Origin: Callorhinchus milii
Lineage: Eukaryota
Direction: 5' to 3'
DNA: 64,000 nucleotides
Assembly (NCBI RefSeq): GCF_018977255.1
Contig: NW_024704742.1
Coordinates: 62,498,001 to 62,562,000 of the forward strand
The translations under genes and the position numbers were made by a program. The notes below the pieces were generated by a model. The model made no database searches. It was not told the origin of the DNA and saw only the letters and a list, made by a program, of their open reading frames with translations. This document shows positions 1 through 61,171 of the stretch, one piece after another; the stretch's first letter is position 1; every line of letters begins with the position of its first letter.

Positions 1-101
1 CCCATGGTCACCTCCCCCAGTTCGATGTCATGCTCCACCACTGTCAAGTACTTTGTGATGCTACCTGGTGTGAAGGGCCAATAGAAATGCAAGTTGTTGT
101 T
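1..101 (+). mobile_element. L2 LINE 3' terminal fragment
   Basis: Ends ...gtgaagggccaatagaaatgcaagttgttgttg, the same tail as other L2 copies in the window. Confidence 0.6.
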
Positions 102-3320: not shown

Positions 3321-4224
3321 AAATAGCCACCCTGTTAACTTTTACAATCCAAAGAACATCAATAGGAAGTTTACCGTCAAGTTTATAGGCCTCAATAGCA
3401 AAGAGGAAAACTTCACATTAAGTATAATCTTTGAAAAAAAGCTTCATGCATGCAAAATTATGCAAGTGTAAAATATGCTCCTGCTATAATACAAGAAAAT
3501 GTAATAGAGAACAATATAGAACACTTGTAATTTTGATAAGGTTTGTTCTCCTGTAACTTGAATTCCAGCATCAATATTTTCTAATTAAGAGAAAGTGCAC
3601 AATACAATATATCATTCTAAAGGAACCTAACCCATTCATCATCCCAGCCAGTTGAAAAAAAGGAGGAATGGAGTGTAATTAACTTTGTTTTAAACCCTTT
3701 TTTTTCAAATGAATTATTTATTACTATGTTCCAATCAGAATAAATGATGAAAATAGTTGTTTGCAGAAGTCAGGTTTTCTATTAATCACCAACAGAAGTC
3801 AAGTGCCATCTTCTAACCGCCCTTACACGTGCAGTCAGGCGAAACATCAGAATAAGCAGTTCAGAAAGCTGAAAGTACATCAACCTTGAACTGGATAATG
3901 TGTTAACCCTCTGGGTGCTAGAATGATGTTACTTTGCTGCTTTGAATGTTCCAAGCTGCTCCATTTTAATTCATTCTATGTTTTTTTCTGATTTGAGTGC
4001 TGTATGCCCTTTGCAACATGTAATCTGTTGATTTTCAATCACTTAAGGAACTGTATCCTATAAGGCAAAGGATGAGAGTACTCAGTCCTGTAATTTAATT
4101 TTAATTTGTAACATTTCCACAATGCTTCCACTTAGCATTTTCAAACAGCAGGATCCATGTTCAGCTACATATAACTGTAAGTTGTTCGCTCCTGAATATC
4201 TAAGTTTTTACATTGCTCTATCAA

Positions 4225-4545
4225 ATAACAATAATTCTTATATTTTTCCTTGTTCTTAATATATCACCTTATCACGTGTTCCAAAATGTCTAAAATCACT
4301 TCTCATGATTTTATTGTAAAATCTAGTAACTGGGTACTTGTATTCGAAATGGGCAGCCAATTGCAACAGCAATGTCCCACAAAGAATAGTGAAGTGAATG
4401 ACCAATTTTCCATGGTTAGGAGAAACTCCCTTCTATTTTGGAATTGTGCAATGGGATTACTAACGTCCACCTGAACAAGCAGAACACACCTTAGACAATG
4501 CAGCGTTCCCTCAGCACTGCATTGTCATGTCAGCCTAGAATACAC
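4225..4545 (-). mobile_element. Type-B DeuSINE-like, degraded
   Basis: gcagccaattgc, atgggattactaacgtccacctgaac and aatgcagcgttccctcagcactgc blocks. Confidence 0.7.
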
Positions 4546-4664
4546 AAACCTTTTTCAAGGTCCTGATGTAAAAATAGAAATCCTGCTGTCTTCAGGCAGA
4601 TAAATATTTCTTTAAAATAGGTACTTCATAAAGAACTACATGTTATTTATAAATTATGTTATTA

Positions 4665-4892
4665 TTGCGAGTTGTTGCGATGTGGAATGCCTTGCTAAGT
4701 AAGGTGATAGAGGCAGAATCCATTATGGGTTTAAAGAGGGAAGCCAGGCATAAGGTAGTTAAAGTCTTCAAACAGTATGGAGATAGGGCAGAAGTAAGGC
4801 TGAAAGAACATAGTGGTCTGGGAGCCAGTGCAGACTCGATAGACTGAATGGCCTCCTTCTGCGCTGTAAATTTCTATGATTTTATGATTCTA
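4665..4892 (+). mobile_element. CR1 LINE 3' fragment
   Basis: RVVAMWNAL (CR1 ORF2 C-terminus) then gaatggcctccttctg...ttctatgattttatgattctat tail. Confidence 0.8.
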
Positions 4893-7164
4893 TTTAGCAC
4901 CAGCTATTCAGATAATGTCTAAACATAATAAAACAGCACAAAGACATCATAAGATTTAATTATATTCCCACATTGTTCAATAATACAATGGTGTTTTAAA
5001 ACCAATTTGAAATGTTTTCCTGTAACAATAATTTTCTACAGCACACCTATTATCAACAGTGAATCCACATCAGTACTTCATAACAATGTCATTATGGGTT
5101 TATTATGACTGGGATTTGATATTCCTTTTGTAAGTCATATAAGATAAGACCAACATAAAGGTCTTATCTCCTCATAAAAATGGTTTAGATCCCACCAGCT
5201 GAATTGCTGTCTCATGGCAAATCCCTGAAGTATTTGTGGCCAGCATTTGTGACTGAGATCCTGCCATCGTAAACCAGGACTTAGGTTACAAAATTGGATT
5301 AATTCCTGAATATAACATGGTTTAATATTCGATCTAGCAGAAGAGCCATACATCACTTTGGTTACAATAAAATCACAGTGAAGTGAGGCGATAACATATT
5401 TTGATGTGATTTATGTTTCTGTGTTGTACCTTTATAAATGTTTTCATAAGACATTTACACTTTAAATGTATCTGAATGGAACTGTAGATTGTAAAAACAC
5501 CAATTACACATATTTTCTCTATTGTGTAACAAGTTGTAAATGCCTTAAATGGTATAAACCAAGCAACATCTACAACTGGGGTCTAAGTACTATATTTTAT
5601 TTGAGGATGTTTCGCCCACAAAATATACAGTCAATTCACATTACTGTGAAATGCTTTGAGATGTCTCGATGATGTGATAAGCTGCTAGATAAAATGCAAG
5701 GATTATTATTACAGTATGTTTGAACACGATTTGCTGTGTTGGTTGCGACTTGTGGTTTGTGAGCACTGAAAGCTGTTCTATTTGCAAGATTCACAAAATG
5801 GCTAACAGTGAGCACAGTTTGCCTGCCTGCCTTTGTGTGAACACTGCTGTTTTTTGGGCTTCTGTCAGTTGTATATACTAGCAGGCTGGCCTGATTTGAA
5901 CATACAGGTTGGTACAGGGAGACCCAGTTAGGAAGGGCCTAAGTAGCTTTGTGTCCTGTGGATAGCTAGAGTTACCAGAAGAATGATATACTTCCAGCTT
6001 CTTGATGGCCCACCTGCACCAGAGGCTAGAAGCTCTGGACCCCTGTCCAGAAGGGTGGTGTGGACCCACTGTGGGATTTACCTCAGGAAACAAACTGGGT
6101 GAAGTGACATCTGTGGTAGATCAGCTGTCATATGATAGGTGGGATTAGAAGCCTCGAGAGCCTGAATGGCTATCAAACCATGTCTCAAACACTTTTATTC
6201 CTAAGATGTCAGATATTTTTTGTTTGACTTAAGTAACATTTTCACAGTCCTCTCGATGTGTGGTTTCTGACCCCAGCACTAGTCTCTTCTGCACTCTGCA
6301 GAGGCTGTATCTACATAATTATTGTCCCTGGTCAGAATTTATGAGGTTGAGTTCTCTATTCTCCCCAGAGCATGAGAGAGCGAGATTACCGCCTTAGGTC
6401 GGTTAAAATGTCTCTTGGTTTTTTAATAGTGTTTGTTGAGGTCTGCTGAACTTTCATTATTCCTGCTTTTATGTGAACGAATGCCCTGGGGCATAGCAAT
6501 TTAATATTTTTGAAGAAGATATAGTAAATAAAGGATTTTAAAAAAAGAGTGTCCCTTCTCTAAATATAAAGTAATTTTGTTATTCCATGATCTGTTACCA
6601 TCTATCGCCTGGAGTTGGAGTTTCTAAGTTTTCAATGGATAAAAATCATAAAAGAGCAGAAATCTGGAAATCCAATTTTTAAAAATTGTTTCACTATTTG
6701 TAATACAAGTGCTCCTCTGAGGAAGGGTAGGAACATTTTAAATACGTCAATGTCACAGGTATAACTAGCATACAAACAAAAATGTCTAGTTATTAAACTA
6801 TTAAAGTATCTGTCCGTAGGTTTTTTGGAGTACATTTTATGAACAATTTGTAATGCTGAGGGATGTGTGTGCTGGGAACAATGCTTTTTTGTGCATCCAA
6901 AATCAGGCATAGGTATATAGCATGGACTCACTCCACTGTCTACAGTGGAAAATAGACAGTGTATTGCTTGAGTTTGTAAATAAATTCAACATCTGTTTTT
7001 CTGTTGCTCTCTGGGCCAGCGCTCCGAGACATTCCAAGTCACTACCCCGTTTGAACGGGGCGCTATATAAATGCAAGTTTTTATTGTGATTGATACCTCA
7101 TGCTTCTCTGTCTTGTAGGTCAGATTTCAAATTTAAACAAGAATGGGTTTGAATTTAATAAATA

Positions 7165-10511: not shown

Positions 10512-11783
10512 AAACAACAACAAATTACATTTGTATCGCACCTTTCACATTAGAAGGATATCCCGAGGCACTGAACAGTCAAGGATTTGGAAAAGTGCAG
10601 GGGATTGGGATCAGATGGGGTGGAGGACTGGAAAGGAGGCCGAAGGCACGGTCAAAAAAGAGGGTCTTGAAGTGTGCCTTGAAGGAAGCAAGGCAGGGAG
10701 CAAGGAGAAGGGACTGTGGGATGGAGTTTCAAAGGGTGGGCGCAAAGAGGCTTAAGGCTCAACCTGGACTGGGTGGGAACGTGGAACAGGCCAGAGCCTG
10801 CTGAGCATTGCGAGTGGACAAAATGATATGGGGTTAGCAGGTCACAGAAGTAAGGAGCAAGGTCGTGGAAGGCCTTGAAGGCGAAGCTGAGCATTTTCAA
10901 TTCTATCCTCTGGTGAAAGGGGAGCCAGTAGAGCCGGACAAGGGTGGGGGTGATAATAATAATAATAATCCTTGCATTTGATATCGCGCTTTTCACGTCT
11001 TCTAGTGTGATGGGGTCACGGAGCCTGGTGCAGGAGAGGACACGAGCTGCAGATGATCTCCAGCTTGTGGAGGGAAGAGGTGGGAAGGCCGACAAGCAGG
11101 GTGTTGGCATAGTCAAGTCTAGATTTGATAAATAATATATAATAATAATGCTTGCATTTGATAGCGCCTTATCATATCTTTCAGAAGTCTCAAATGCTTC
11201 ACAGAATATACTGTAAAGTGAATTGACCATATATTTTGTGGGTGAAACACTGCAGCCAATTGCACACAGCAGTGGCCCACAAATAGCTGTGAATTGAATG
11301 ACCAAATTATTATTATTTTGTTTTGAAGGGATTATTACCCGCGGAAAAGCAATCTACCAATCGACTAACAACCGGGTTCCTACTTACTGCTAGGTAAACT
11401 GAGGCGTGTGGAGTAAGGAAACTTGCCCAACATTTTGCCCTGCCCGGGAATCAAACCCATATGCATGGATAAGGGTTTTGGTGGCCTGAGGGGAGAGGCA
11501 GTGGCAGAGCCGGACGAGGAGGCGCTGATGGGAGCCAATTAGGAGAGCCTCGATTTTGTTGACGTTCAACTGGAGAAAGTTAGCTCTCATCCAGGACTTG
11601 AGTCTGACAGACATTCTGTCAGGATAGAGGTGGTCCTGGAGTCTAAGGTGGAGCCAGAGAGATAGAGTTGGGTGTCATCCGCAAACATGTGGAAATTGAC
11701 CCCTTATCTGGCAATGATGTCACCAAGAGGGAGCATGTACATGTTGAAGAGGAGAGGGCCAAGGACAGAACCCTGAGGAACGC
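10512..11783 (-). mobile_element. L2 LINE fragment (RT to 3' end), split by two SINE insertions
   Basis: Antisense [41 protein letters not shown] inserts at ~10952-11003 and ~11127-11458. Confidence 0.9.
11127..11458 (-). mobile_element. Type-A SINE nested in L2
   Basis: Colinear with 38205-38562; L2 sequence continues on both sides. Confidence 0.9.
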
Positions 11784-13984
11784 AGTCAATAGTTATAACT
11801 GACTGAACACTCAGCATGTCAGTGATAACTATTCAGTACTTTTGATTGTATTTTCTTGGTGATATTATCACATCTCCCTTCCATACATATCTCACTTATT
11901 TACAGAATAACCTACCATAGGATTGTGATAAATGCCATGGTATCCCATCAGATGCAGTGAAATATTTTATAATTTGACAAATCCTCAATTGGAATGGACT
12001 TTTATGTGAGATAACCTATGTGAAATGTTTAGAAGAATTAGTTGCTCCCATTAATGCTGGGATCATGAATCAAAATCACTGAACTCGTGGCTTCTCAGAG
12101 TAGATGCGGTTGAGTCACTGGTGATTAGAGCAATCTACTTTCTTGCCGCTGCTGTGGAACAGGCTATGTGATTGAATTTATTTCTCCCCCATATTGTTAT
12201 GATCACTAACAACGGGGAACCTTGTGCTGAGAGCTACATTATTCATCTTCTTCTCCACATGCGGAGGAGTTCTGCAAGGGTCACTTTAGTAATTGGTCTC
12301 CAGACTTTCTTATGCTCTGAGGGCTCTTAAAAAAGGTAAGGAGTATATACTCCCCGGTCTGTGCATTTGTCGAGAAAATTGGTCTTCATTTCGAGTCCCT
12401 TTACAGGAGAAGACGGCAAGAAGCAAAGCTCCCGTGTTCAGAAAATAACATTAAACAGATATTTGATCAGAAAACCCTCCAGTCACATTTATATTAACTA
12501 CTGCATGAAGCAACCTTTATGAGGTTCAATTTCTGTTATATAAAAAAGGACTACATACCGACACAGTCACTGAAGCCAAGCCTAAATAAGGCACTTTAAA
12601 ACCTAGGTGAATAACTGAAGGTAGAGTAACAGACACATAAAGTTATGGAATAGACAAGTTCCCTTGCACCACTGCACTTAGCTTTTATATCCTGTTTGCA
12701 TTCGATAGGTGAAGAATGTTAACAGTTTTTTTTAAATTTATAATTAACCTCCCCGCCACCAATAAAAAAAGTAGATAATGAAATAATTGTGACATGCCTA
12801 TATTTGGACAGCCAGTTTGTCAAAGAGTCAGGTGAGGCTGACAATGATTTTTGTTACATCCATCTCCCCTATTGTTCTATGCTGGAAATAAATCTAACAC
12901 AAACTCAGTAATATTTGCAATTTATCATAAATTGCTTGCAAACAAAAATAAGCAAACTGATTGAATGAAAAATGGAATCTATTTATTTATCTCTAGCTGT
13001 ACGTATATCAACATTTAAGCTACCTTTCCTCATATTGTCTCCTTCTCCTTACCCAAGCACCATTAAAACAAAAGCCATCACTTACACAATTAGGGTTAAT
13101 AGTAAATGTTATCGCTGGCAGCTTATCAGCGAACATGTTTAGTAGTGAAAATGTGTGTCTTACAATTTTAGCTTTTATGAATTTAAAATTACCAATAACA
13201 TTGTAACTTCCTGTTTCTCAGTCACAGTTCACATTTTGTAATATATTTAGTCAAATTTTATAATTGGAAACCATACTGTTATCATTAACTTATCAGCAGA
13301 AACTTATTCCTTCAACTATCACTTCCCACTTAAAAGCTTAAGGCGTTCCTTTATCTCCTATTATTTCCGACAGATAAAACGTAAATCACCCCAAAATAAT
13401 GTACCATTTGAAATGAGTCTGTGCTGGTAGATAAAGTACAGTGTGATATATCCCTGTACATCAGTATTCAAAGTTCCACTTTAGATCATTAAAAATCAAG
13501 GCAAATTAGGAATCTTCACTGTGACCCTCCGCAGGGCCTCACTGTGAATAGCAGCTAAGTGGATAAAGGGGATCAGATATTAACTTCACTGCTGGTCTTA
13601 TTTTGTACAGATTATTCCTGTCTTTGACTTGGTTTGAAGCAGAATTAATTTTGGCTGGAAACAAAGCATCAAACAGAAATTGGCTCTTGAATCCCATGTT
13701 TAACTGAGTGCTGACTTTGAAAAGACAAAGTAAAAGTGCAATTATCCCCGAATAATAAATCAGTTCATAATTAACCAGTTTTTATGCACACGTACAGTAA
13801 AATCCTGATAACTCGACCCTGGCTTAATTTATCCCTACCATTTGTCATCATGATGTCAATATCCCGGCTGCATTGATTTATGTATTGAGGGCTGGAAGTC
13901 CTATTTGAGAAATGTCCATGGGCTGCATAAGCAACACTTTTGTGTTTCCTTTCCTGAAACATAACATAACAATTACGGGTTATG

Positions 13985-14061
13985 GAGGGAGCACATGGGC
14001 CAGATGAAATGGAGGGAGGCCAAATGAAATCAGACCACGAGCCGCCAGTTGGACCACCCTG
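13985..14061. mobile_element. Possible hAT-type MITE terminal fragment
   Basis: gggccagatgaaatgg...gccgccagttggaccaccctg resembles hAT MITE ends from memory; no partner TIR found. Confidence 0.3.
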
Positions 14062-14431
14062 ATGTATTTATGCAAATAACTAACTCGCCACCGTGGATAA
14101 CTCATGCCCCACACTGTGCCCCCCCATTCCCCGCTGGCACCTCTTCCCTCCCAAATTTTGGCACAATGTTGAGCCCAAAGCTGGCCGAGCTGGCGGAGGT
14201 GTTTTCTGTGGAAGGCAGAGTTTTAGTACCACTTCATGTGACAGCAGCTTGGTTCAATCCAGTATCTCGTCAAGCAGCACTCTACAGGTCACCAAAGCCT
14301 TGTGTGGCAACTCGACTGGCTCCTGCCTGGAAGCTTCAGGCACAATCACTTTGCCAAAGTCTGGAGGTGGTGAGGGGAAAAGGAGACCACTATATGACCA
14401 ATCTTTAGCTGTTAGCTTGACTGCAATTTCT

Positions 14432-14517
14432 GATTATTTAAATATAATGAATATATTTTGTTAAATGGATTACAAATCACTGTGACCCGAAACCATGCTG
14501 TTATTCTGAAATTATCA
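14432..14517 (+). repeat. 86-bp local direct repeat, copy 1
   Basis: Ungapped match to 15635-15720, about 10 mismatches. Confidence 0.9.
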
Positions 14518-14864
14518 CACACATATATATATATGATAGTTACACTTTCAAGTGCTCCGAGATGTCGTATGGTGCGAAGGGTGTTATATTAAAGTTGTTG
14601 TTGTTCGGTGATAGTACTGCAACATCTTCATTGATGGAGTTTTTAGCCATTTACCTTGTTTTGGGGGGATTGATGGATGGTATGCTGCATGTTGACATGG
14701 GACGATATCTGCACTGATCTAACTGAAAGTGTGGCAGGATAAGCTGGCACTTCAATGGATGATAACCAACAGTTAAAAATAAGCAGTTTTCTGATTCGCA
14801 GGCATGATAGGGGGATGGTAGGGAGGAGGAGAGGGTGTCTTTAACCAGATCTTGGAGATTGTGG

Positions 14865-15165
14865 ATTTCATACTTCTGAAAGTGCTTCACAGGGTATATT
14901 GAAAAGCGGATTCACTGTGTATTTTGTGGGTGAAATGTGGCAGGTAATTACACACAGCAATGTTCCACAAACAATCATGGAGTAAGTGGAGGGACTGTTA
15001 CCCCTGGAAAGTGATCTTCCAGTTGACTAATGACCAAGTTCCTACATATTGCTCGGTAAACAAGGGCGTGTGGAGTAAGGAAACTTGCTACCATGTCAGG
15101 GAATTGAACCTGGGTTCTCTCCCTGCGAGGTGAGTGCTCTAAACAACATGCTACAGGACTCCACA
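14865..15165 (-). mobile_element. Type-A SINE
   Basis: gtgtggagtaaggaaacttgc...gggaattgaacctggg...gtgctctaa...ctacaggactcc (antisense head). Confidence 0.85.
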
Positions 15166-15634
15166 AGTTGGGGTGATGGGTGAGAGGGAAAAGGTGGTGT
15201 TCAAACCCAAACCCTATGTTAAAGACAGGTTTAGAAGGTACATTTTAACTGCAATTTATGCTGTATTTTACCTTTTACAAGTGGTAAGTAAGAGATGGAA
15301 ATCAGATCCTGGTCCTCACATCTCGTCCCACTCTGTGACTTCGGGAATTCTACAGCCCTGGCTGTTCCCTTTGCTCAGTGAACATTGACCTGGGGCAATC
15401 CCCCCCACCCTATCCGCCTCACCATCAGCGGGTGAGCTTTCAGCCATACTGCCCCAGCTCTTGGGTAGGAAATTGTCTTCCTGAGGTGAAAAACACTACA
15501 CTAATTTACAATACAATTTACATTGTTCAAAATTGTTCCTTAACTACACTTTATGGTAAATCCTGCGAAGTGCTCTGAGACTTTTGGGCAATATGATAAG
15601 CCGCTGTATCAAATGCAAGGATTATAAATGCATG

Positions 15635-17249: not shown

Positions 17250-18739
17250 GTTTTTGATCTTCCAAAATTGCATGGATTTTGGAATGGTTCCCAGTGATTG
17301 GAAGGTCACAAACGTAACGTCGATATTCAAGAAGGGTGGGAGACAAAAAATGGGGAATTATAGACCAGTTAGTCTGGCATCGGTGGTAGGGAAAATTCTA
17401 GTCCTTAATTAGGGACATCGTTGAGGGGTAACTAGAAAATCATAACATGATTAGGCAGATTCAACATGGCTTTACGAAAGGGAAATCGTGTTTAACAAAT
17501 CTTAAGAGTTTTTTGAGGATGTAACTAACTGGTTAGATAGGGGGGAAACCAGTAGATGTGGTGCATTTGGATTTCCAGAAGGCATTCGATAAGGTGCCAT
17601 ATAAAAGGCTGTTGCATAAGATTGGAGCCCATGGAATTAAAGGCAACATATTAACATGGATTGGAGAGTGGCTAACAGAAAGAAAACAGAGAGTAGGGAA
17701 AAACAGGTCCTTCTCAGATTGGCAGGATGTGGCTAGTGGAGTGCCACAAGGATCAGTGCTTGGGCCTCAATTATTTACAGTCTATATCAATGATTTAGAT
17801 GAGGAAATAGAACTTAATATTTCTAAATTCGCGGATGATACGAAGATAGTTGGGAGAGTAAGCTGTGAGGATGACACACGAAGAATGCAAAGGGAAATAG
17901 ACAGGCTAGTTGAGTCGGCAAGAAGGTGGCAGATGGAGTAAAACGTGGGAAAGTGTGAAGTTATTCGCCTACGTAGTAAAAATAGAAAAGCGGATTATTT
18001 TCTAGACGGGGAGAGACTAGGTAGTGTTGGTGTAGAGGGATTTGGGTGTCCTTGTACACCAGTCACAAAAAGTTAGTTTGCAGGTTCAGCAAGCAACTAA
18101 ACCCACGTTGACGTTTGTTGCAAAAGGTTAGAGTACAAGAGTAGGGAAGTCTTGCTGCAACTGTATAGGGCCTTGGTGAGACTGCAACTAGAATATTGTG
18201 TGCAATTTTGGTCTCCTTATTTAAGAAAGGACATACTTCTCCTTAGAGGTGGTGCAGCGTAGATTTACTAGGTTGGTTCCTGGGATGAGGGGGTTGACCT
18301 ATGAGGATAGGTTGAGTAAACTAGGCCTATAATCTCTAGAATATAGAAGAATTAAAGGTGATCTTATAGAAACCTATAAGATTCTTAAGGGTCTTGACAG
18401 GGTAGATGCCATGAGACTGTTTCCCCTGGTTGGAGAATCTAAAACTAGGGATCATAGTCTCAAGATTAAGGGTCAGCCTTTTCGAACTGAGTTGAGGAAA
18501 CATTTCTTCACTCAGATGGTAGTGAATTTATGGAATTCTCTACCCCAGAAGGCTCAGTCCTTGAACATATTCAAGACTGAGGTTGATAGATTTCTAAAGG
18601 ATAGAGGGATTAAGGGATATGGGGATAGGGCGGTTAAATGGAGTTAGGTGAGAAGATCAGCCATGATCTTATTAAATGGCAGGGCAGGTTTGAGGGGCCG
18701 AATGGTCTACTTCTGCTCCTACATCTTATGGTCTTATGG
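17250..18739 (+). mobile_element. 5'-truncated CR1 LINE, disrupted ORF2 reverse transcriptase
   Basis: [48 protein letters not shown]; stops and frameshifts; (tcttatgg)2 tail. Confidence 0.95.
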
Positions 18740-18744
18740 TACGT

Positions 18745-18960
18745 ACAGGTAGATTTTAGAGATCCTATGACACTACTCAAAAAGAGCAGGGAATTTTTCC
18801 TGGTGTCCTGGCCAACATTCCCCGAAATAAAATTAATCATTCACTTCATAGGCTTGTTTGCAGGATATTGCAACTTGTTGCCGCATTTATCTACAAATAA
18901 AAACTTCATCCTTGAAGAGTTTTCAAACGCTCGACAACATGATAAAGTACTATATCAAAA
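18745..18960 (+). mobile_element. Type-B SINE, central domain to tail
   Basis: caggtagattttagagatcctatgacactac...gagcagggaatttttcctggtgtcctggccaacattcc. Confidence 0.75.
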
Positions 18961-18974
18961 GTTAGGGGACGTTG

Positions 18975-20030
18975 TGGGACTAGGACTCCAAGTCGAGTCC
19001 TACTTAACCAACCACCTCCACTTCATCTCGGCAAATGGTTTCTCCTCCCACCCCCGCCCAGTCACCTGCGGGGTACCTCAGGGCTCCATCCTTGGCTCTC
19101 TTCTTTTCCTAATCCATATGCTCCTTCTTGGCGATGTCATCCACAGCCTGGGGTAAACTTATACATGTATGTGGATGACACAATGATTTACGTTGCCTCC
19201 TCCAGCTATGTCTCCATGTCCACCGATTTTCTATCAGCTTGTCTGGCAAACAATAGAGCCTGGATAAGTGCAAACTTCCTGCAGCTGAATGTAGACAAGA
19301 CAGAAGACATAATCCTTGGTTCCTGTCAACGACTTTACGCCTGCAGATCTGAAATCCTCAACCTCCTTGGGCTCTCCCTCAGACTCACCGATCCAGTGCA
19401 CAATCTAGGCGTCTGGTTTGACCCCTAGCTGTCCTTTCTCCCCCAGTTTTGCCCCCTGACCAGGAACGCCTACTTCCACCTCCGCCGCATTGCCAAGCTC
19501 CAACCGTACCTTACCCCAAATGCAGCCAAAACCCTTGTGCATGCGTTTGTCACCTCTCACTCAGATGCAATCCTCGCTGGTCTCCCCAGCTAGAGTCTCC
19601 ACTATTCAAAAAATCCAGTTCATTCAGAAATCTGCTGCCCGCATACTGACCCAGACCAAACTCCGTACCCATATCTCACCATTTCTGGCCAGGCTCCACT
19701 GGCTCCCTATCACTGAATGGATCGACTTCAACATCTTCACATTCATGATCAAATCCCTTTACTTCCTGGCACCTCCCTACCTCCCTGACCTCCCCACTCT
19801 CCAATCCACCACCCAGCGCCTGTGCTCAACTGGTACTGGCCTCCTGTTTGTCCCTTGCACCCATCGCTCCACCATTGGAGATCGCGCCCAACCACAATGC
19901 CCTTAAACTCTGGAACACTCTCCCTCAATCCCTTCTCCTTAACCCTGCTCTCCCCTTTTTCAAGTCCTGCCTTAAAACCTTCCTTTTTGACTGTGCTTAC
20001 GGTCACCTGCCCACCCCCCCGGCTCAGAAT
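18975..20030 (+). mobile_element. 5'-truncated L2 LINE, disrupted ORF2 reverse transcriptase
   Basis: TCGVPQGSILGSLLF, YVDDT, NFLQLNVDKTE, NLGVWFDP, LHWLP, LWNTLP..LKTFLF in shifted frames. Confidence 0.93.
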
Positions 20031-23499: not shown

Positions 23500-24202
23500 A
23501 TAATAATCCTTGCATTTGGTATAGCGCATTATCACGTCTGAAAGTGCTTCACAGGACTTTCTGTGAAATTGACTGTATTTGTAGGCAAATCTTTTACACA
23601 ATTTTACACATCAATGTCCACAAACAGCCATGAAACAAATTCGGGAGATTGTTGGCCAGGGCACCGGGAGAAACTCTTGTTTCTTTTCAAACAGTGCCAT
23701 GGGGTCTTTAACGTTCACCTGAATAGGCAGATGGGACCTCAGTTTAAGTTTGTGGAGTCCTGTAGCTCAGTGGTTAGAGCACTCGCTTTGCAAGCGAGAG
23801 ACCTGAGTTCAATTCCAGGCAGGGCGAAACCTTGGGCAAGTTTCCTTACTCCACACGCCTGATAATAATCCCTCCAAAACCATAAGCAATAATAAATTGG
23901 TCATTTTCAATCCACGACTGTTTGTGGGACATTGCTGTGCGCAATTGGCTACCGCGTTCGCCCACAAATATACAGTCAATTCACTTTACAGTGTGTTCTG
24001 CGAAGCGCTTTGGGACGTCCTCCTGACGTGAAAAGCGCTATATCAAATGCAAGGATTATTATTACTATTTTGAAGGCACACACCCAGCACTGCATTGGAG
24101 TATCAGCTTAGACTATGTAAGTTCCAAGTCCCAATGTGGGACTTGAACCTACAACGTTCTGACTCAGAGGCGATAATGCTACCAATTGCTACCAAGCTGA
24201 CA
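23500..24202 (-). mobile_element. Type-B DeuSINE-like, split by a type-A insertion
   Basis: Tail and central domain at 23500-23750, head at 24070-24202. Confidence 0.85.
23753..24068 (+). mobile_element. Young type-A SINE, internal-deletion variant
   Basis: tRNA-like head 23756-23827 with A box tagctcagtgg, B box gttcaattcc and anticodon arm ctcgc-tttgcaa-gcgag; CpGs retained; (ATT)n tail. Confidence 0.92.
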
Positions 24203-33647: not shown

Positions 33648-34075
33648 ACAACAACAAAAACAACAACAAAATTACATTTATGGAGCGCCTTTCATGTCGG
33701 GAGGACGTCCCAAAGCGTTGAACAGTCAGGTGTCGGGGCCCGAGCATGGGGGAGGGGGGTGGTGTAGGGGTGAGGGGAGGCAGAGAGGTGGGAGGGAGAC
33801 CAAAGGCACGGTTGAAGAGAAAGGTCTTGAGACCGATCTTGAAGGAGGCAAGGGAGGAAGTGATGCAAAGGGACCGCGGGATGGAGTTCCAGAGTGGGGG
33901 GCAGAGAGGCTAAAAGCCCAGCTACCGATGGTAGGGTGGGTCGGGTGGGAGACATGAAGCAGGCCAGAGCCCGATGAACGGAGGGAGCGGGCAGGCTCGT
34001 AGGGAGTCAGCAAGTAAGAGAGGTAGGAGGGGGCAAGGCCATGGATGGCCTTAAATGCTTCAAATAAAAGCTTGA
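33648..34075 (-). mobile_element. L2 LINE 3' fragment
   Basis: AFKAIHGLAPSYLSYLLTPYEPARSLRSS; (CAA)n tail. Confidence 0.92.
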
Positions 34076-34404
34076 CAGACAAGGCAAAGCCTCCTTGCTC
34101 TGAAGGCTAATGGGTCTTAAATTAAGTCTTGAGATACAGTACTTTGATCCAGTTTCCAGTAAAGCTGTCAATACAGCTGAATTACTCAGTAATTGCACCT
34201 GTATGCATTTTTTAAACAATGTAGGAGCTGAAAAGAGATACACTTTCAAGTTACTTGACAAAGACTGTGTTGCGCATGCCTATTGTTCTATGGTTTTATA
34301 TACGCCACAATGTGGCATGAGGCAACACAATTAGAAACAAATGCACAGTATTTATGCATCGGACACCAATACTATGTGTTATTTCCAACCATTATGATTA
34401 CAGA

Positions 34405-35305
34405 ACACATTAATTCTTGCATTTGATATAGCGCCTCATCACATCATTGAGATGTCTCAGTGCGCTTCACAGAATCTTCTCCTCCTACCTACTTACCTCC
34501 CTCCCTACCTTCTTCCCTACCTCCTACCTCCCTCCCTCCCCCTCTCTCTCTCCCTCTCTCCATCTTCTTCTATCTATTATCTATACTAATAAAACAACAA
34601 TGTCTGTCTGCTCTTCAAGAAGAATCTCAATAACCAATTGACGTAGAGGCATGATTTATACTTCATCGGAAAAGTCTTGCATCTGGGAGTGATATGGGCA
34701 TATTTGTTTTCAGGTATCTCCTATCGTTCATGAGTTATTTTCAGTTTTGCATTTTTTGCTGCAGTTACAGCTGGTGACCATCGAGTCAAAGTGGTCCTGA
34801 GTGAGGGATTGTCGGTCACAGAGCAGCGACGTATGTACGCACACACTGCGGTTACACCTGGTGGCCGTGCCGGCTGATCATAGTGCTTTGGCATTCTATA
34901 TCACAAAGCACGCACATAGCCAAGGGGTGAGAACCAAATAAAGAACACAGACAAAGCTAAATTACGGCAACAACAACAAAATTACATTTTTAAAGCACCA
35001 AGTCTTCCCACTGAGTCTTCCCAAAATGAGTTCTCCCACAGGAGTCCTCTAGATGAGTATAGATAAAAATGAAATGTCTGCCTTACTGTCTGTCTGTGTG
35101 CGAATCTACATTTCATATGGATCCTTTGCTTGCAAGCGTAACTGCAACAGGTACAGCTAGTATATTATAAAGTGGATTGACTGTGTATTTTGTGAGCAAA
35201 ACACAGCAACCAATTGTGCACAGTAGTGTCCCACGAACAGTCATGGATTGAGTAACCAAATTATTTTTTCTGGGAGGATTACTATTATCCACCAATCGAC
35301 CAACA
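34405..35305 (-). mobile_element. Type-A SINE 3' half, split by a Helitron
   Basis: 34405-34474 joined to 35161-35305 rebuilds gcgcttcacagaa|tatattataaagtggattgactg, as in uninterrupted copies. Confidence 0.88.
34475..35160 (+). mobile_element. Non-autonomous Helitron, compound (exact ends)
   Basis: Starts TC, ends GGTACAGCTAG, inserted A^T with no target-site duplication; degenerate subterminal hairpin ~35123-35151; TCTATACTAATAAAA-type 5' motif. Confidence 0.82.
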
Positions 35306-35444
35306 GCATATCATGTAGATTATAAAGTAGATTATAAATGTAGGTTCAGAGAGTCACAATAGCATATAAATGCTAGTTGTTTTCTTTCCAAGGCTGGACA
35401 GCCCTAGATTATTTATTTGTTCATCAGCTCATTAGTAGCCTTGG

Positions 35445-35537
35445 GGATCATCCTCATTACTCTCCTCTGCATTGTGGATTATCTTCATTAATCCCTTCTA
35501 CATTGAGGATTATCCTCATTGCTCTCTTCTGCACTGC
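35445..35537. repeat. 3 x 31-bp tandem repeat
   Basis: ggatcatcctcattactctcctctgcattgt / ggattatcttcattaatcccttctacattga / ggattatcctcattgctctcttctgcactgc. Confidence 0.85.
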
Positions 35538-36054
35538 CTCTGATTAAACTATTTAAGAAACTTTACTTCTGGTTTCCATTCTTCCTCATGCTATCTTTTA
35601 CAATTACTTTTACTTTCCTTTTTTTTTCTTAATCCTACTGTTTTCAAAAATAACATTCCTACTTCCTTTTCTCTGCCTCCGTCATCCTACTGTTTGACAG
35701 GGGTTTCATGTAAGCTAAAATCAACTCTTGGCTAAAAACAGGTTTCAAAGGTCACTTTTATAGATAGCCCAGTCACTGACCGAACATTGTAGTTTGACTT
35801 CATCAGATTGTTGGAGTGACTAGGTGATATGACCTTCTTGCAAGGGTTTGACAGCCTGAAATAGTCAGAGTGCTTGACAAGTTAAATTGTCAGTGGTGCA
35901 GAGAGCTGTCAAAACTGCTTACCTCATCAGGAACAGCAAAGGGTAAGCATGGAGATGCAGTTGATAGTGAAGATTAAAGCTTCTTATGCTAAAGGTGCCA
36001 CAGTCACTGACTATGTTGATTTCTTTAGGTGATATAATGAGTTTCTTCTGCCTT

Positions 36055-38204: not shown

Positions 38205-38562
38205 AAATAATAATAATAATCTTTGCATTTGATATAGCGCTTTATCACATCTTTGAGACATCTCAAAGCGCTTCACAGAATATACTGTGAAGTGAATTGA
38301 CTGTATATTTGTGAGCGATACACTGCAGCCAAATGCACACAGCAGTGTTCCACAAACAGTCGTGGATTGAAGCGACCAAGTTATTATTATTTTCTTTGAA
38401 GGAATTATTACCCCTGGAAAAGCGATCCACCAATCGACTAACAGTCGGGTTCCTGCGTACTGCTAGGTAAACAAGATGTGTGGAGTAAGGAAACTTGCTC
38501 AACATTTCGTCCTGCCGGGAATAGAACCCAGGTCTCTCGCTTGCGAGGCGAGTGCTCTAACT
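38205..38562 (-). mobile_element. Type-A SINE, near full length
   Basis: All modules present; antisense anticodon arm ctcgc-ctcgcaa-gcgag. Confidence 0.92.
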
Positions 38563-38612
38563 GCTGGGATATGACGAACTATCGGGGAAATTGTATTAAG
38601 TTGCAGATCAGC

Positions 38613-39897
38613 CATAGAATCATAGAATTATACAGCACAGAAGGAGGCCATTCAGCCCATCGTGTATACATTGGTTCTTTGAAAAGAACTATCTAAATCC
38701 CACTCTTCTGCTCTCTCCCCATAGCCCTGCAATCTTCTCCTCCCCAAATAAGTATCTACTTCTCTCTTAAAAATTGCTATCAAATTGGCTACCACACGCT
38801 ATCAGGCAATACATTCCTGATCCGTACAACTGTGAAAAAAATTCTCCTAACCTCCTCTCTGTAATTTTGAAAAGTTGTCTTAAGTGTCCTCATACCCTTC
38901 GCTGCTCCAAAGAGAATATTCTGGCTTCTCTAGCCTCTCCTCTTAACTGCAGTCCCGCATTCCTAGTACCATCCTGGTAAACCTCCTATCCACCCTCTCC
39001 AATGTCTTGACATCCTTCCTAAAGTGTGGTACCCAGAACCAAACATAATACTCTAGCTGAGGCCTAACCAGTGTTTTATAAAGGTTCATCATAAGTTTTG
39101 TATTCTATGCCCCTATTTATAAAGTCTAGTATCCCATATGCTTTTTTAACAGCTTTATCTGCCAGTCCTGCCACCTTCAAGATTTACTTATACGAACCCC
39201 CAGGTCTCTCTGTTCCTTCACCCCCTTTAAGATTGTACCATCAGCTTATATTGCCTCTCCTCATTCTTCCTAAAAAAATGCATCACTTCACATTTCTCCA
39301 CATTAAACTTCATCTGCCACATGTCTGCCCATTTTACCAGTCTGTCCATGTCCTCTTGTAGTCTGTTACTATCCTCCTCACCGTTTACTACTTTTGCTAT
39401 CTGAGTATCATCTGCAAACTTGGAAATTGTACTCCCTATCCCAAGTCCAGATCATTTATATAGATAAAAAACAGCAGTGGTCCCAATACTGACCCCTGGG
39501 GGGACACCACTGCACACTTCCCTCCAGTCAGAAAGACAATCATTTGCCACCACTCTCTGCTTTCTGTCTCCGAGCCAGTTCTGTATTCATGTTGCCACGG
39601 TTCCTTTAATACCGTGGGCTTCTATTTTGCTTACAAGTCTCTTCTGTGGCAGTTTGTCAAACACCTTTTGAAAATCCATGTAAACTTTATCAAATGCACT
39701 ACGTTCATCCACCCACTCTGTTACTTCGTCAAAAAATTCTATCAGGTTTGTTCGACACGATTTGCCTTCAAAAATCTGTGTTGGCTGTCCTTTATTAACC
39801 CATATTTTTCTAAGAGAAAATTTATTTTGTCCCGGATTATAGTCTCTAGATTTTCTAGAAGTTTCCCCACTACTGATGTTAAGCTGACTGGCCTACA
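38613..39897 (-). mobile_element. 5'-truncated, internally deleted CR1 LINE nested in an older CR1 tail
   Basis: catagaatcatagaa tail; antisense DFQKVFDK, VPPGVSIG, KFADDT, RPVSLTSVVGK; possible 6-bp duplication agccat at 38610 and 39898. Confidence 0.92.
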
Positions 39898-40034
39898 AGC
39901 CATGGAGCTAATAAAATGGTCTACTCCTGTTCCTATCTTATGTTCTGATAAAATGTTGCAAGAAAATGTAGCATTGTTTTTACACTTAATTCCACCCTGG
40001 TAATTTGCGCGAACATTGCGATACTGACTTTAAA

Positions 40035-41160: not shown

Positions 41161-41821
41161 CAGGAAGGCCAATATGGTCAATGTCTGAGGTGAAGTGTAG
41201 GTGGTAGCTACCCACTTCAATCCCATTTCCCTGTTCTTTCCCCCATAAATTGGAAGCAAATTTGACTAACTTGTTTGTGATGGCCTCACACAGATTATAT
41301 CCGGATGAGTGAACTCGTTCCATGTACTTCTAAAGCTACAGATATAAAGAGAAACATTTTCTCTGAATTGGCTTTCTGTTTATTATTGATTTAGAGGCAA
41401 GAATGGCTCTTTTAGCAGTTCAAGTTGATCCTGGATTTGACTGAGGTTAACTTTGGATTCCATTGAAGATCATCTATTCATCCCCTGTTGTTTTAATGAC
41501 ATTTTTCCATGCTGCAGTTTGCCAAATCATGTACCATTTTAACTTCCTATGCTCGAATGTTTAATTCGGGGAAAAGAAATACTATGTGTCATAAATCCAT
41601 ATTTGTTGATTTGCTGCCATACAGAATGAACAGCATTTCACACACTCAGCATTACAGCTTGAGAGATTAGAAGTGAGACTGTGATTTAGATTGCAAACAG
41701 AGCAAAGATTAATTGCAGTGGAACAGCACAAATACTATTGATTGACCGTTCTACACTTGCAAATCAAACATACACTCAATTGGGACATTTGTCACTTCCA
41801 AGAATTATGATTACAGAGCAC

Positions 41822-42177
41822 ATTAATCCTTGCATTTGATATAGGGCTTTTTATCACGTCTTTGAACCGTCTCAAAGCACCTCACAGAATAAATTGTAAA
41901 GTGGATTGACTGCATTTTGTGGGCAAATGCGGTAGCCAATTGTGCACAACAATGTCCCACAAACAGTCGTTGATTGAGTACTCAAATTTTTTTTGAGGGC
42001 TTATTACCCCTGGAAAGCAATCTGCCAATCGATTAACAACTAGGTTCCTACTTATTGCTAGGTAAACAGAGGCATGTGGAGTCAAGGAAACTTGCCTAAT
42101 ATTTTACCCGCCCGGGAATTGAACTCAGGCGCTCTCACTTGTGAAGATAGGTGCTAACCACTATGCTATGGAACTCT
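41822..42177 (-). mobile_element. Type-A SINE, full length
   Basis: Colinear with 38205-38562 through the head. Confidence 0.9.
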
Positions 42178-59410: not shown

Positions 59411-59524
59411 TTCAGAGAGGCAATGCAGTTCTTTGAAAAAAATGGCTCCCGAATTATGACAATTATATGTTAAGAACTTTTCAAAATTCAGCGCAATCTT
59501 AAACCGTAAAACAAGAAACAAACA

Positions 59525-59775
59525 ATAAAATAATCCTTGCATTTGATATAATGCATTGTCATGTCGTTGAAACGTCTCAAAGCACTTCATAGAATTTACA
59601 ATAGTGTAGTGACTACATGTTTGTAGGCTAACCTAGCAGCCAATTTGTGCACAGTAGTGTTCCATAAACAGCCATGAAGTGAATGACCAATTTTCTACAA
59701 TAATAAAATAATCCTTGCATTTGATATAGTGCCTAAACATGTCGTTGAGACATCTCAGAGCGTTTCTCTGTGAAT
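59525..59775 (-). mobile_element. Two tandem SINE tail fragments
   Basis: aataaaataatccttgcatttgatata at ~59524 and ~59702. Confidence 0.75.
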
Positions 59776-61171
59776 GCATTGACTGAACGATCTTAAGGTT
59801 AAGACCATGAAAATTGTTTGGGCTAGTTTAAACTCATAGTGACTCTCCAGTATCCAATGTTATTAATGCCATGGAATTCTCCCCTGTGGATTTCACTCTT
59901 CCCACAAGCAACACAGAAATAACTACACCTGTGAAAATACCAATATTTGGAAGTCATGAACTGCAATTTAAATTTTCTGGCTGCTAAACATTTGCTGATC
60001 TCTGGGGAGAGGCTGGGCAGGCGAGCAAAGCGAAAACCAAATTACTGGCGTGCTTAAACAGGCTGAGGCGGCTGACAACTTTTAGTCAATTACAAATAGT
60101 GGCTGGTGGAGCCAGAGGGACACAGAGCTAGCCCTAACATGGCTGCATTCAGAGGTGCTCTGGGGGTGGTACTCAACACCAATGGAGGCAGGAGGACTGC
60201 TTAATTTCTCTTACAGTCTGATGACGCAAATAGAGCTATAGTGTATTAGATCCCAGGGGTTAAAAAGGGTCAGACTGAATGAGAAGACTGCAGAGTTTTC
60301 ATATTGTGCATTGTCCACATCCAATCTGTTCTTGCACTGCGGACTACATGGTAATGGGGTATTGTTTTGAGGCTGAGCTGAATTGATCAGAGAGGATAAT
60401 TTCACAGCTTGGTTAAATTGTGAAAATGCAATCCACAAAGGAATCTCCTGGGTGCCGATTGTTAACAACCTTCTTAGCTCAATAATTTTCCTTGCAATAA
60501 CTTTTATTGCAACTTGCCAGTTGATTACGATATAAATGCATTGAGTTGAAACTTGGTGCACTGCATAATTATTTCAAGTGATCTGCAAGACAAGAAAAGC
60601 ACCCTGGTATGAAGGGGGTAGTTTATAAGATTGTTCTCTTCAGGGTAGCAATATTTGTATGTGCAGTTCTCTAATACTGTTCAGTGATCAATTAGTTCAA
60701 TTCACATGGGATGCAATGGGTGATATTCTTTGCCCCATGATGGAATGCCATCACATCAATCTGAATCTTTGAAGGTGCATTGGCAAAGGAATGAGATGAC
60801 ACATAGATAGTCATGGACAAATGGAATAGTTATTGGAATGATGTGGGCACCAAGCATGAATTATGGAATTACAATGATCCTGATCCTATTTATGGCTTGA
60901 CTTCACCATAGTTTCTGCTGAGAGTGCTTGCAGTAAAATATTGACTGATCTGGCAATAATGGACATGAAAACAAAATCACTCATCCTCTACTCATGTTGC
61001 TGCTTGTCTGATGTCCAAGGAAGAAGGAATGCTTCAAGGAGATTAAACCTCTGCCTTGACTCAGGCCCAAAAATGAAAAACAAAGTGATATTTGCAGCAT
61101 TGTCCAAAACATTCCTTATGATATATTTACTGTGACAGTTATCACAAGAAACATTTTATGAAATCCCAGAA

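Follow-up and report, generated by a model that had tools for sequence, protein, structure and literature searches.

A non-autonomous HLE1-type Helitron in a Callorhinchus milii SINE, and the pyrimidine tract ahead of its apparent 5' start

A SINE in the genome of Callorhinchus milii is split by 686 bp of other sequence (positions 34475-35160), at an A/T junction and with zero duplication or loss. What kind of element was inserted there, and did all 686 bp arrive together? Positions are those of the window, by which we mean the whole 64,000-nt stretch that was analysed (assembly GCF_018977255.1, contig NW_024704742.1, 62,498,001 to 62,562,000, forward strand). A preliminary description of this DNA placed the initial TC at 34475, the terminal CTAG at 35157-35160 and the resuming SINE (TATATT) at 35161, all of which is correct, and took the whole insert for a non-autonomous Helitron. 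The class stands, on the site, the ends and the multi-copy nature of the sequence; the proposals that 34475 is the 5' terminus and that a hairpin is evidence for the class are not supported as they were put. We consider it highly probable that the insertion is a non-autonomous Helitron of the HLE1 type. Coordinates of the parts are collected in Table 1.

Table 1. Parts of the insert and of its host SINE, in window coordinates
Positions	Strand	Feature	Basis
34374..34410	-	Host SINE tail extension, not (ATT)n; in the window common only to the copy at 41787-41823	Alignment
34411..34474	-	Host SINE 3' part (L2-like tail), left of the insertion; last base is the target A	Flank alignments
34475..34579	+	Pyrimidine tract; starts TC, outside the conserved start	Composition, period; 34480-34572 masked
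34580..34760	+	Conserved 5' end and 5' core; starts A/TC, first 22 nt 82% AT; highest-copy part	Contig depth
34758..34910	+	Decayed internal duplication, 87-bp period; low-copy middle, in a minority of members	0 of 500 shuffles reach the score; depth
34968..34999	+	L2 LINE-like piece (3' tail, reversed)	27 of 31 nt identical to 33659-33689
35000..35052	+	Four decayed tandem units of 13-15 nt	Direct-repeat search
35087..35160	+	3' terminal region: degenerate stem-loop 35123-35151, 10-nt palindrome 35128-35137, CTAG 35157-35160	Folding, depth, X7 joint
35161..35306	-	Host SINE remainder (body); tRNA head absent in this copy	Flank alignments

Insertion site and class of the element

The left SINE flank runs to CTTCACAGAA, whose last base is 34474. 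When the two flanks are joined they align across the junction with 26 other SINE copies within the 64-kb window; the junction columns read AT in 21 of the 26, AC in two and GT in one, and are gapped in two. The copies at 38217-38388 and 11146-11314, previously named as showing the intact SINE that removal of the insert restores, are among those that align straight through. None of the 26 carries extra letters at the junction, and a search for target-site duplications of 1-11 nt found nothing past a single shared T; the absence of duplication and deletion is thus upheld, with no repeat of 2-11 nt.

The same site can be followed beyond the window in four public sequencing runs, two (X13 and X14) under the window's own species label and two (X2 and X7) under two other species labels. 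The comparison draws on these four; the word shares of runs X1, X3-X6 and X8-X12 are small. Contigs whose alignment starts at 35161 (355 records in X13, 327 in X14, 318 in X2 and 215 in X7) have loose letters whose consensus ends CTTCACAGAA, indicating that the empty site holds genome-wide and that the SINE family is continuous through it. Joints across the insert in these contigs derive from paralogous SINE copies.

Target-site duplications and terminal inverted repeats (TIRs), which the preliminary description had set against a Helitron, are both absent from this copy. Among the inverted pairs listed (25 of 27), none links the two ends of the insert; the nearest pairs 34577-34590 with 35053-35066, ~95 nt inside the 3' end. 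The 3' terminus is of the CTRR form (CTAG, then the target T). At the base composition of the window, A/T, TC and CTAG would coincide by chance with a probability of 1.1e-5, or 4e-5 when two strands and two registers are allowed. Pfam gave no family in any of the 11 insert ORFs scanned (24 insert ORFs in all), and Rfam gave no match to the insert. The A/T site, the lack of target-site duplication and TIRs, the TC and CTAG ends, the lack of a coding remnant and the multi-copy sequence together support a non-autonomous Helitron. HLE1 elements are described as having TC, a stem-loop followed by CTRR and an A-T site, and HLE2 elements a T-T site and short TIRs (PMC11417382, PMC3789558); with its A/T site and without terminal inverted repeats, the insert shows neither HLE2 trait. 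We regard the HLE1-type assignment as well supported.

A hairpin had been reported ~10 nt from the end. One can indeed be drawn at 35123-35151, 9 nt from the end (7 bp, one bulge, a 14-nt loop, -2.0 kcal/mol), but in this copy it lacks significance: shuffled sequences fold as well as the 3' end does at its best (z -0.28 and -0.43), and the insert end is equalled in folding by 188 of the 1824 window 45-mers that end in CTRR. TG/CA steps occur in both arms where CpG decay would leave them, and it is therefore plausible that the ancestral stem was stronger than the present one.

A different insertion mechanism that leaves no target-site duplication (a Helentron or HLE2-type element, a tyrosine-recombinase element, or repair-mediated copying of a repeat fragment) could have produced the insert, with TC and CTAG at its ends by chance. 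The joint probability of the ends (~1e-5 to 3e-4) argues against this, as do the absence of both HLE2 traits (PMC11417382) and the multi-copy segments at both insert ends, which are joined in a shorter form of the family. We hold such an origin to be very improbable, even though the hairpin is not significant, no transposase is tied to the insert, and the loose ends listed at the multi-copy 3' region (2385 more rows exist) are SINE records only, not 3' junctions of other copies.

The 5' boundary and the pyrimidine tract

The motif A/TC occurs at both 34474/34475 and 34579/34580. The conserved 5' start of the family appears to be the second of these, 34580 (A/TCTATACTAATAAAA), and not 34475: alignments of other copies stop at 34579-34589, at the second A/TC and its AT-rich motif. 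The contigs listed are the longest 32 of 97,474 pieces, five of them belonging to this locus and 27 to other copies; 13 of these 27 begin at 34579-34589 and none begins earlier, and 11 of the 13 carry 35-1606 nt of unaligned sequence upstream. Two contig pairs probably represent one locus each, recovered in both X13 and X14, and the minus-strand orientation was read from one such pair. The 22 nt that begin at 34580 are 82% AT, against 55% for those after 34475. By the depth in the edge bins, the start lies at 34580-34582 in X2 and X7; for the window's own species the figure is 34574-34579, so that some copies could have a short 5' extension.

The 105 bp between the two A/TC motifs consist of 55 C, 40 T and 10 A (90% pyrimidine) and form the only 105-nt stretch in the window that is at least 85% pyrimidine. 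They make up a compound period-4 microsatellite of TACC-, TCCC- and TATC-like units (73% matches), and the last, TATC-like units are continuous with the element's first bases. None of the contigs listed spans the tract, whose support thus lies in the assembly; positions 34480-34572 were repeat-masked in the contig alignment, which could conceal similar tracts in other copies and makes the zero depth there uninformative. The tract is probably a microsatellite grown at the 5' junction of this copy.

The full reading that we favour, and hold to be fairly probable, is that of an HLE1 Helitron of ~581 bp (34580-35160) inserted in an older SINE, with a tract specific to this copy. By analogy with the Helraiser experiments, the Rep-helicase of an autonomous element elsewhere would have copied 34580-35160, and the copy would have been joined between A and T of the older SINE without duplication or loss. 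The microsatellite at 34475-34579 would have grown by slippage at the 5' junction, with the target A and the first bases of the element as its seed, and would then have decayed into TACC/TCCC/CT units. According to PMC4778049, the Helraiser Rep-helicase attaches the TC of the left end to A and the CTAG of the right end to T, the left end is essential, and the hairpin is a loose stop signal, leading to truncations and to capture by read-through; such behaviour would account for the A/T site without duplication, for the excess of 5' ends in the family and for the captured piece (both below).

Alternatively, all 686 bp may have moved together, as a subfamily or in a single event with a new TC start ~105 bp upstream, the tract coming from the donor site. 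The outer junction is likewise a perfect A/TC, the empty site is without the tract, and both the masking of the tract and the own-species edge-bin depth permit some extension; yet the 27 listed contigs of other copies include none with an alignment upstream of 34579, even though the mask ends at 34572, the first 22 nt are less AT-rich (55% against 82%), and the left ends of Helraiser are exact and essential according to PMC4778049. We think this unlikely. Decidedly doubtful is the more general proposition that such a tract is carried in at transposition by way of an upstream TC (5' flank transduction), or that microsatellites are routinely grown at the left junction; if true, it would mirror at the 5' end the known 3' read-through, and would be a source of new microsatellites in chimaera genomes. 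Our literature search, whose scope took in few subscription papers, returned no description of a Helitron whose left end is preceded by a tract. Very improbable is the reading in which the core is a Helitron and the tract an artefact of assembly or sequencing in low-complexity DNA. The tract is the sole stretch of its composition in the window and is covered by none of the listed contigs, but that zero depth is explained by the repeat mask, the compound and decayed units (73% matches) are unlike slippage error, and the adjoining sequence matches X13 contigs with 0 differences.

A dispersed family with a variable middle

In all four public runs the Helitron sequence belongs to a dispersed multi-copy family: depth is far above that of unique flanks, and contigs carry long unrelated upstream flanks. 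Summed depth in X13 is ~10 over the unique flanks, 11,500-15,300 over 34600-34761, 525-1,966 over 34762-34923 and 3,900-5,040 over 35032-35139, and the pattern is repeated in X14, X2 and X7. Expressed as copy-equivalents, the same three segments reach roughly 950-1,600, 40-210 and 330-530 in the window's own species, and 200-320, 5-30 and 70-80 in the other two; copy-equivalents are summed depth divided by a chosen single-copy depth, and are orders of magnitude rather than copy numbers. The majority letters are alike in all four runs. X13 may come from the very sample that was assembled, and it lends the locus no independent support; its unique flanks show 0 differences from the window (1-2 in X14), and one of its contigs is an exact match to 34975-35162.

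Two contigs bear on the structure of the family. One from X7 joins 34741 to 35087 with 29 other letters between them, which fits a short form with both ends, and one from X2 skips 34867-34967; together they indicate that the ends of the family are kept while the middle varies. The 5' copies outnumber the 3' copies, although the same excess could arise if the short 3' part matched less often at the 86% cut-off. We picture a family that numbers from hundreds to about a thousand copy-equivalents; its members would have the 180-bp 5' end in common and differ in the middle, the longer form seen here bearing an internal duplication and a captured piece of L2 tail. To judge from its sequence, the L2-tail-like piece is probably a captured host repeat. 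It appears to belong to the subfamily, rather than to be a later insertion in this copy, since contigs with family-level majority letters cross its left edge. There is no second copy of the insert in the window, where only the L2-tail-like piece has matches elsewhere.

At 34756-34781 many other-copy contigs depart from the alignment and depth falls about tenfold; this region may mark a subfamily breakpoint. Positions 34757-34768 are also the reverse complement (11 of 12 nt) of 35138-35149 in the 3' stem region. We considered 34757-34775 as an earlier 3' end bypassed by read-through and rejected it, the likeness being weak (12 of 300 shuffles reach its score) and no hairpin preceding it.

Motif scans of viral contigs (1, 0 and 6 matches), metagenome contigs (2) and prokaryote genomes (0) gave nine loci, none of them alike beyond the motif; these collections are not animal genomes and are silent on the distribution of the family. 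The literature within the scope of our search, which lay outside Repbase, Dfam and most subscription papers, holds no description of the family, and it is possibly catalogued already.

Age, host SINE and known relatives

The X13 majority differs from this copy at no fewer than 23 positions among the rows listed (84 more exist), six of the 23 being CpG in the majority; this corresponds to at least 4% of the 581-bp core. The sister copies listed are 86-90% identical to this one, a range whose lower bound is set by the cut-off. At 10-14% from its listed sisters, this Helitron copy is old, and at a rate of 1.0-1.1 per thousand sites per million years (PMC5499810) the divergence would amount to tens of millions of years; the same source gives an alternative rate six times slower.

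It had been proposed that Helitron activity post-dates the younger SINE type. This went too far: the nesting orders only this insertion after this SINE copy. Identity of the host copy is 85.5% with the local majority and 83.4% with its best match among other copies, against 90.6% between two further SINE copies in the window. With the host copy ~14% from the majority and those two so alike, the periods of Helitron and SINE activity may overlap, and the insertion is not necessarily later than the end of the SINE type's spread.

The window is ~39% GC, and self-matches take up 16,647 of its 64,000 bases. The most frequent repeat in it is a ~370-bp SINE, which has a tRNA-Ala head and whose tail resembles the 3' ends of L2 LINEs found there; a copy of the host type has as its head the tRNA-Ala at 23757-23826. 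These features match the description of the CmiSINEs of holocephalans, SINE2-1_CM and SINE2B-1_CM (tRNA-Ala head, L2-like 3' tail, very high density, ~370 bp; PMC5499810), a comparison made by described features and not by consensus sequence. The tRNA-Ala calls of Rfam and ARAGORN at 23757-23826 and 38507-38576 are SINE heads, not genes. The SINE copy at 23763-24070 is missing ~55 nt of its body, and at 59513-59785 two SINE tail pieces (59524-59693 and 59702-59766) lie head to tail in a short tandem. In the host copy and in the copy at 41787-41994, ~37 nt beyond the tail replace the usual (ATT)n, and the farther flanks are unalignable, a pattern that suggests either a SINE subvariant whose 3' end differs or a small duplication.

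A Pfam scan of 76 window ORFs found two LINE reverse-transcriptase pieces and one sub-threshold FAST_1, and identified no host gene among them. Decayed LINE fragments lie at 17478-18644, 39282-40029 and 18743-19906, with RVT_1 ORFs at 17537-17938 and 18946-19425. To the right of the host SINE, 35410-35571 is moderately repeated (depth 370-1,600 in the four runs) and holds a 34-nt direct repeat (35441-35474 and 35503-35536).

Among described Helitrons, the insert resembles Helraiser/Helibat1 as presented in PMC4778049 in its 5' TC, its 3' CTAG, its A/T insertion without target-site duplication and its AT-rich left end, and also in the position of the stem-loop that can be drawn ~10 nt from the end, a probable captured host fragment and a variable right part; it differs in that the stem-loop here is decayed, a 105-bp tract lies before the conserved left end, and no Rep-helicase partner was tied to the insert. 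Heli1Xen1 of Xenopus laevis and other aquatic vertebrates (PMC12001565) likewise has a TC start, a TA-rich left end and a hairpin followed by CTAG; compared by description only, Heli1Xen1 is young and horizontally transferred, whereas this copy is old. The lepidopteran Hel-2 (PMC4344730) is also a short non-autonomous Helitron with a variable tetranucleotide microsatellite, but its (CTGT)n is internal, downstream of the 5' subterminal repeat, and the tract here precedes the conserved 5' end.

Table S1 of HELIANO (PMC11417382) lists the Repbase element Helitron-1_CM of Callorhinchus milii as HLE1. HLE1 and the fish lineage are common to it and to the insert, the comparison being by name and group alone and not by termini, and Helitron-1_CM is a natural candidate for the mobilising element. 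The supplement of the same paper reports HLE1 in four of eight shark and ray genomes, with up to 11,154 copies. The presence of Helitrons in cartilaginous fishes is thus already known. The main text of a chimaera assembly paper (PMC12952989) does not mention Helitrons.

The finding otherwise adds little beyond annotation, and would carry greater weight only if the tract in front were a case of 5' transduction. DNA transposons have been reported as scarce in the elephant shark (PMC4350176), and a family of hundreds of copies found under three species labels is therefore worth an entry in the repeat library, with the correct 5' boundary. The locus itself offers a clean nesting of a Helitron in a SINE, which can be used for ordering waves of repeats, or as a presence/absence marker among related species.
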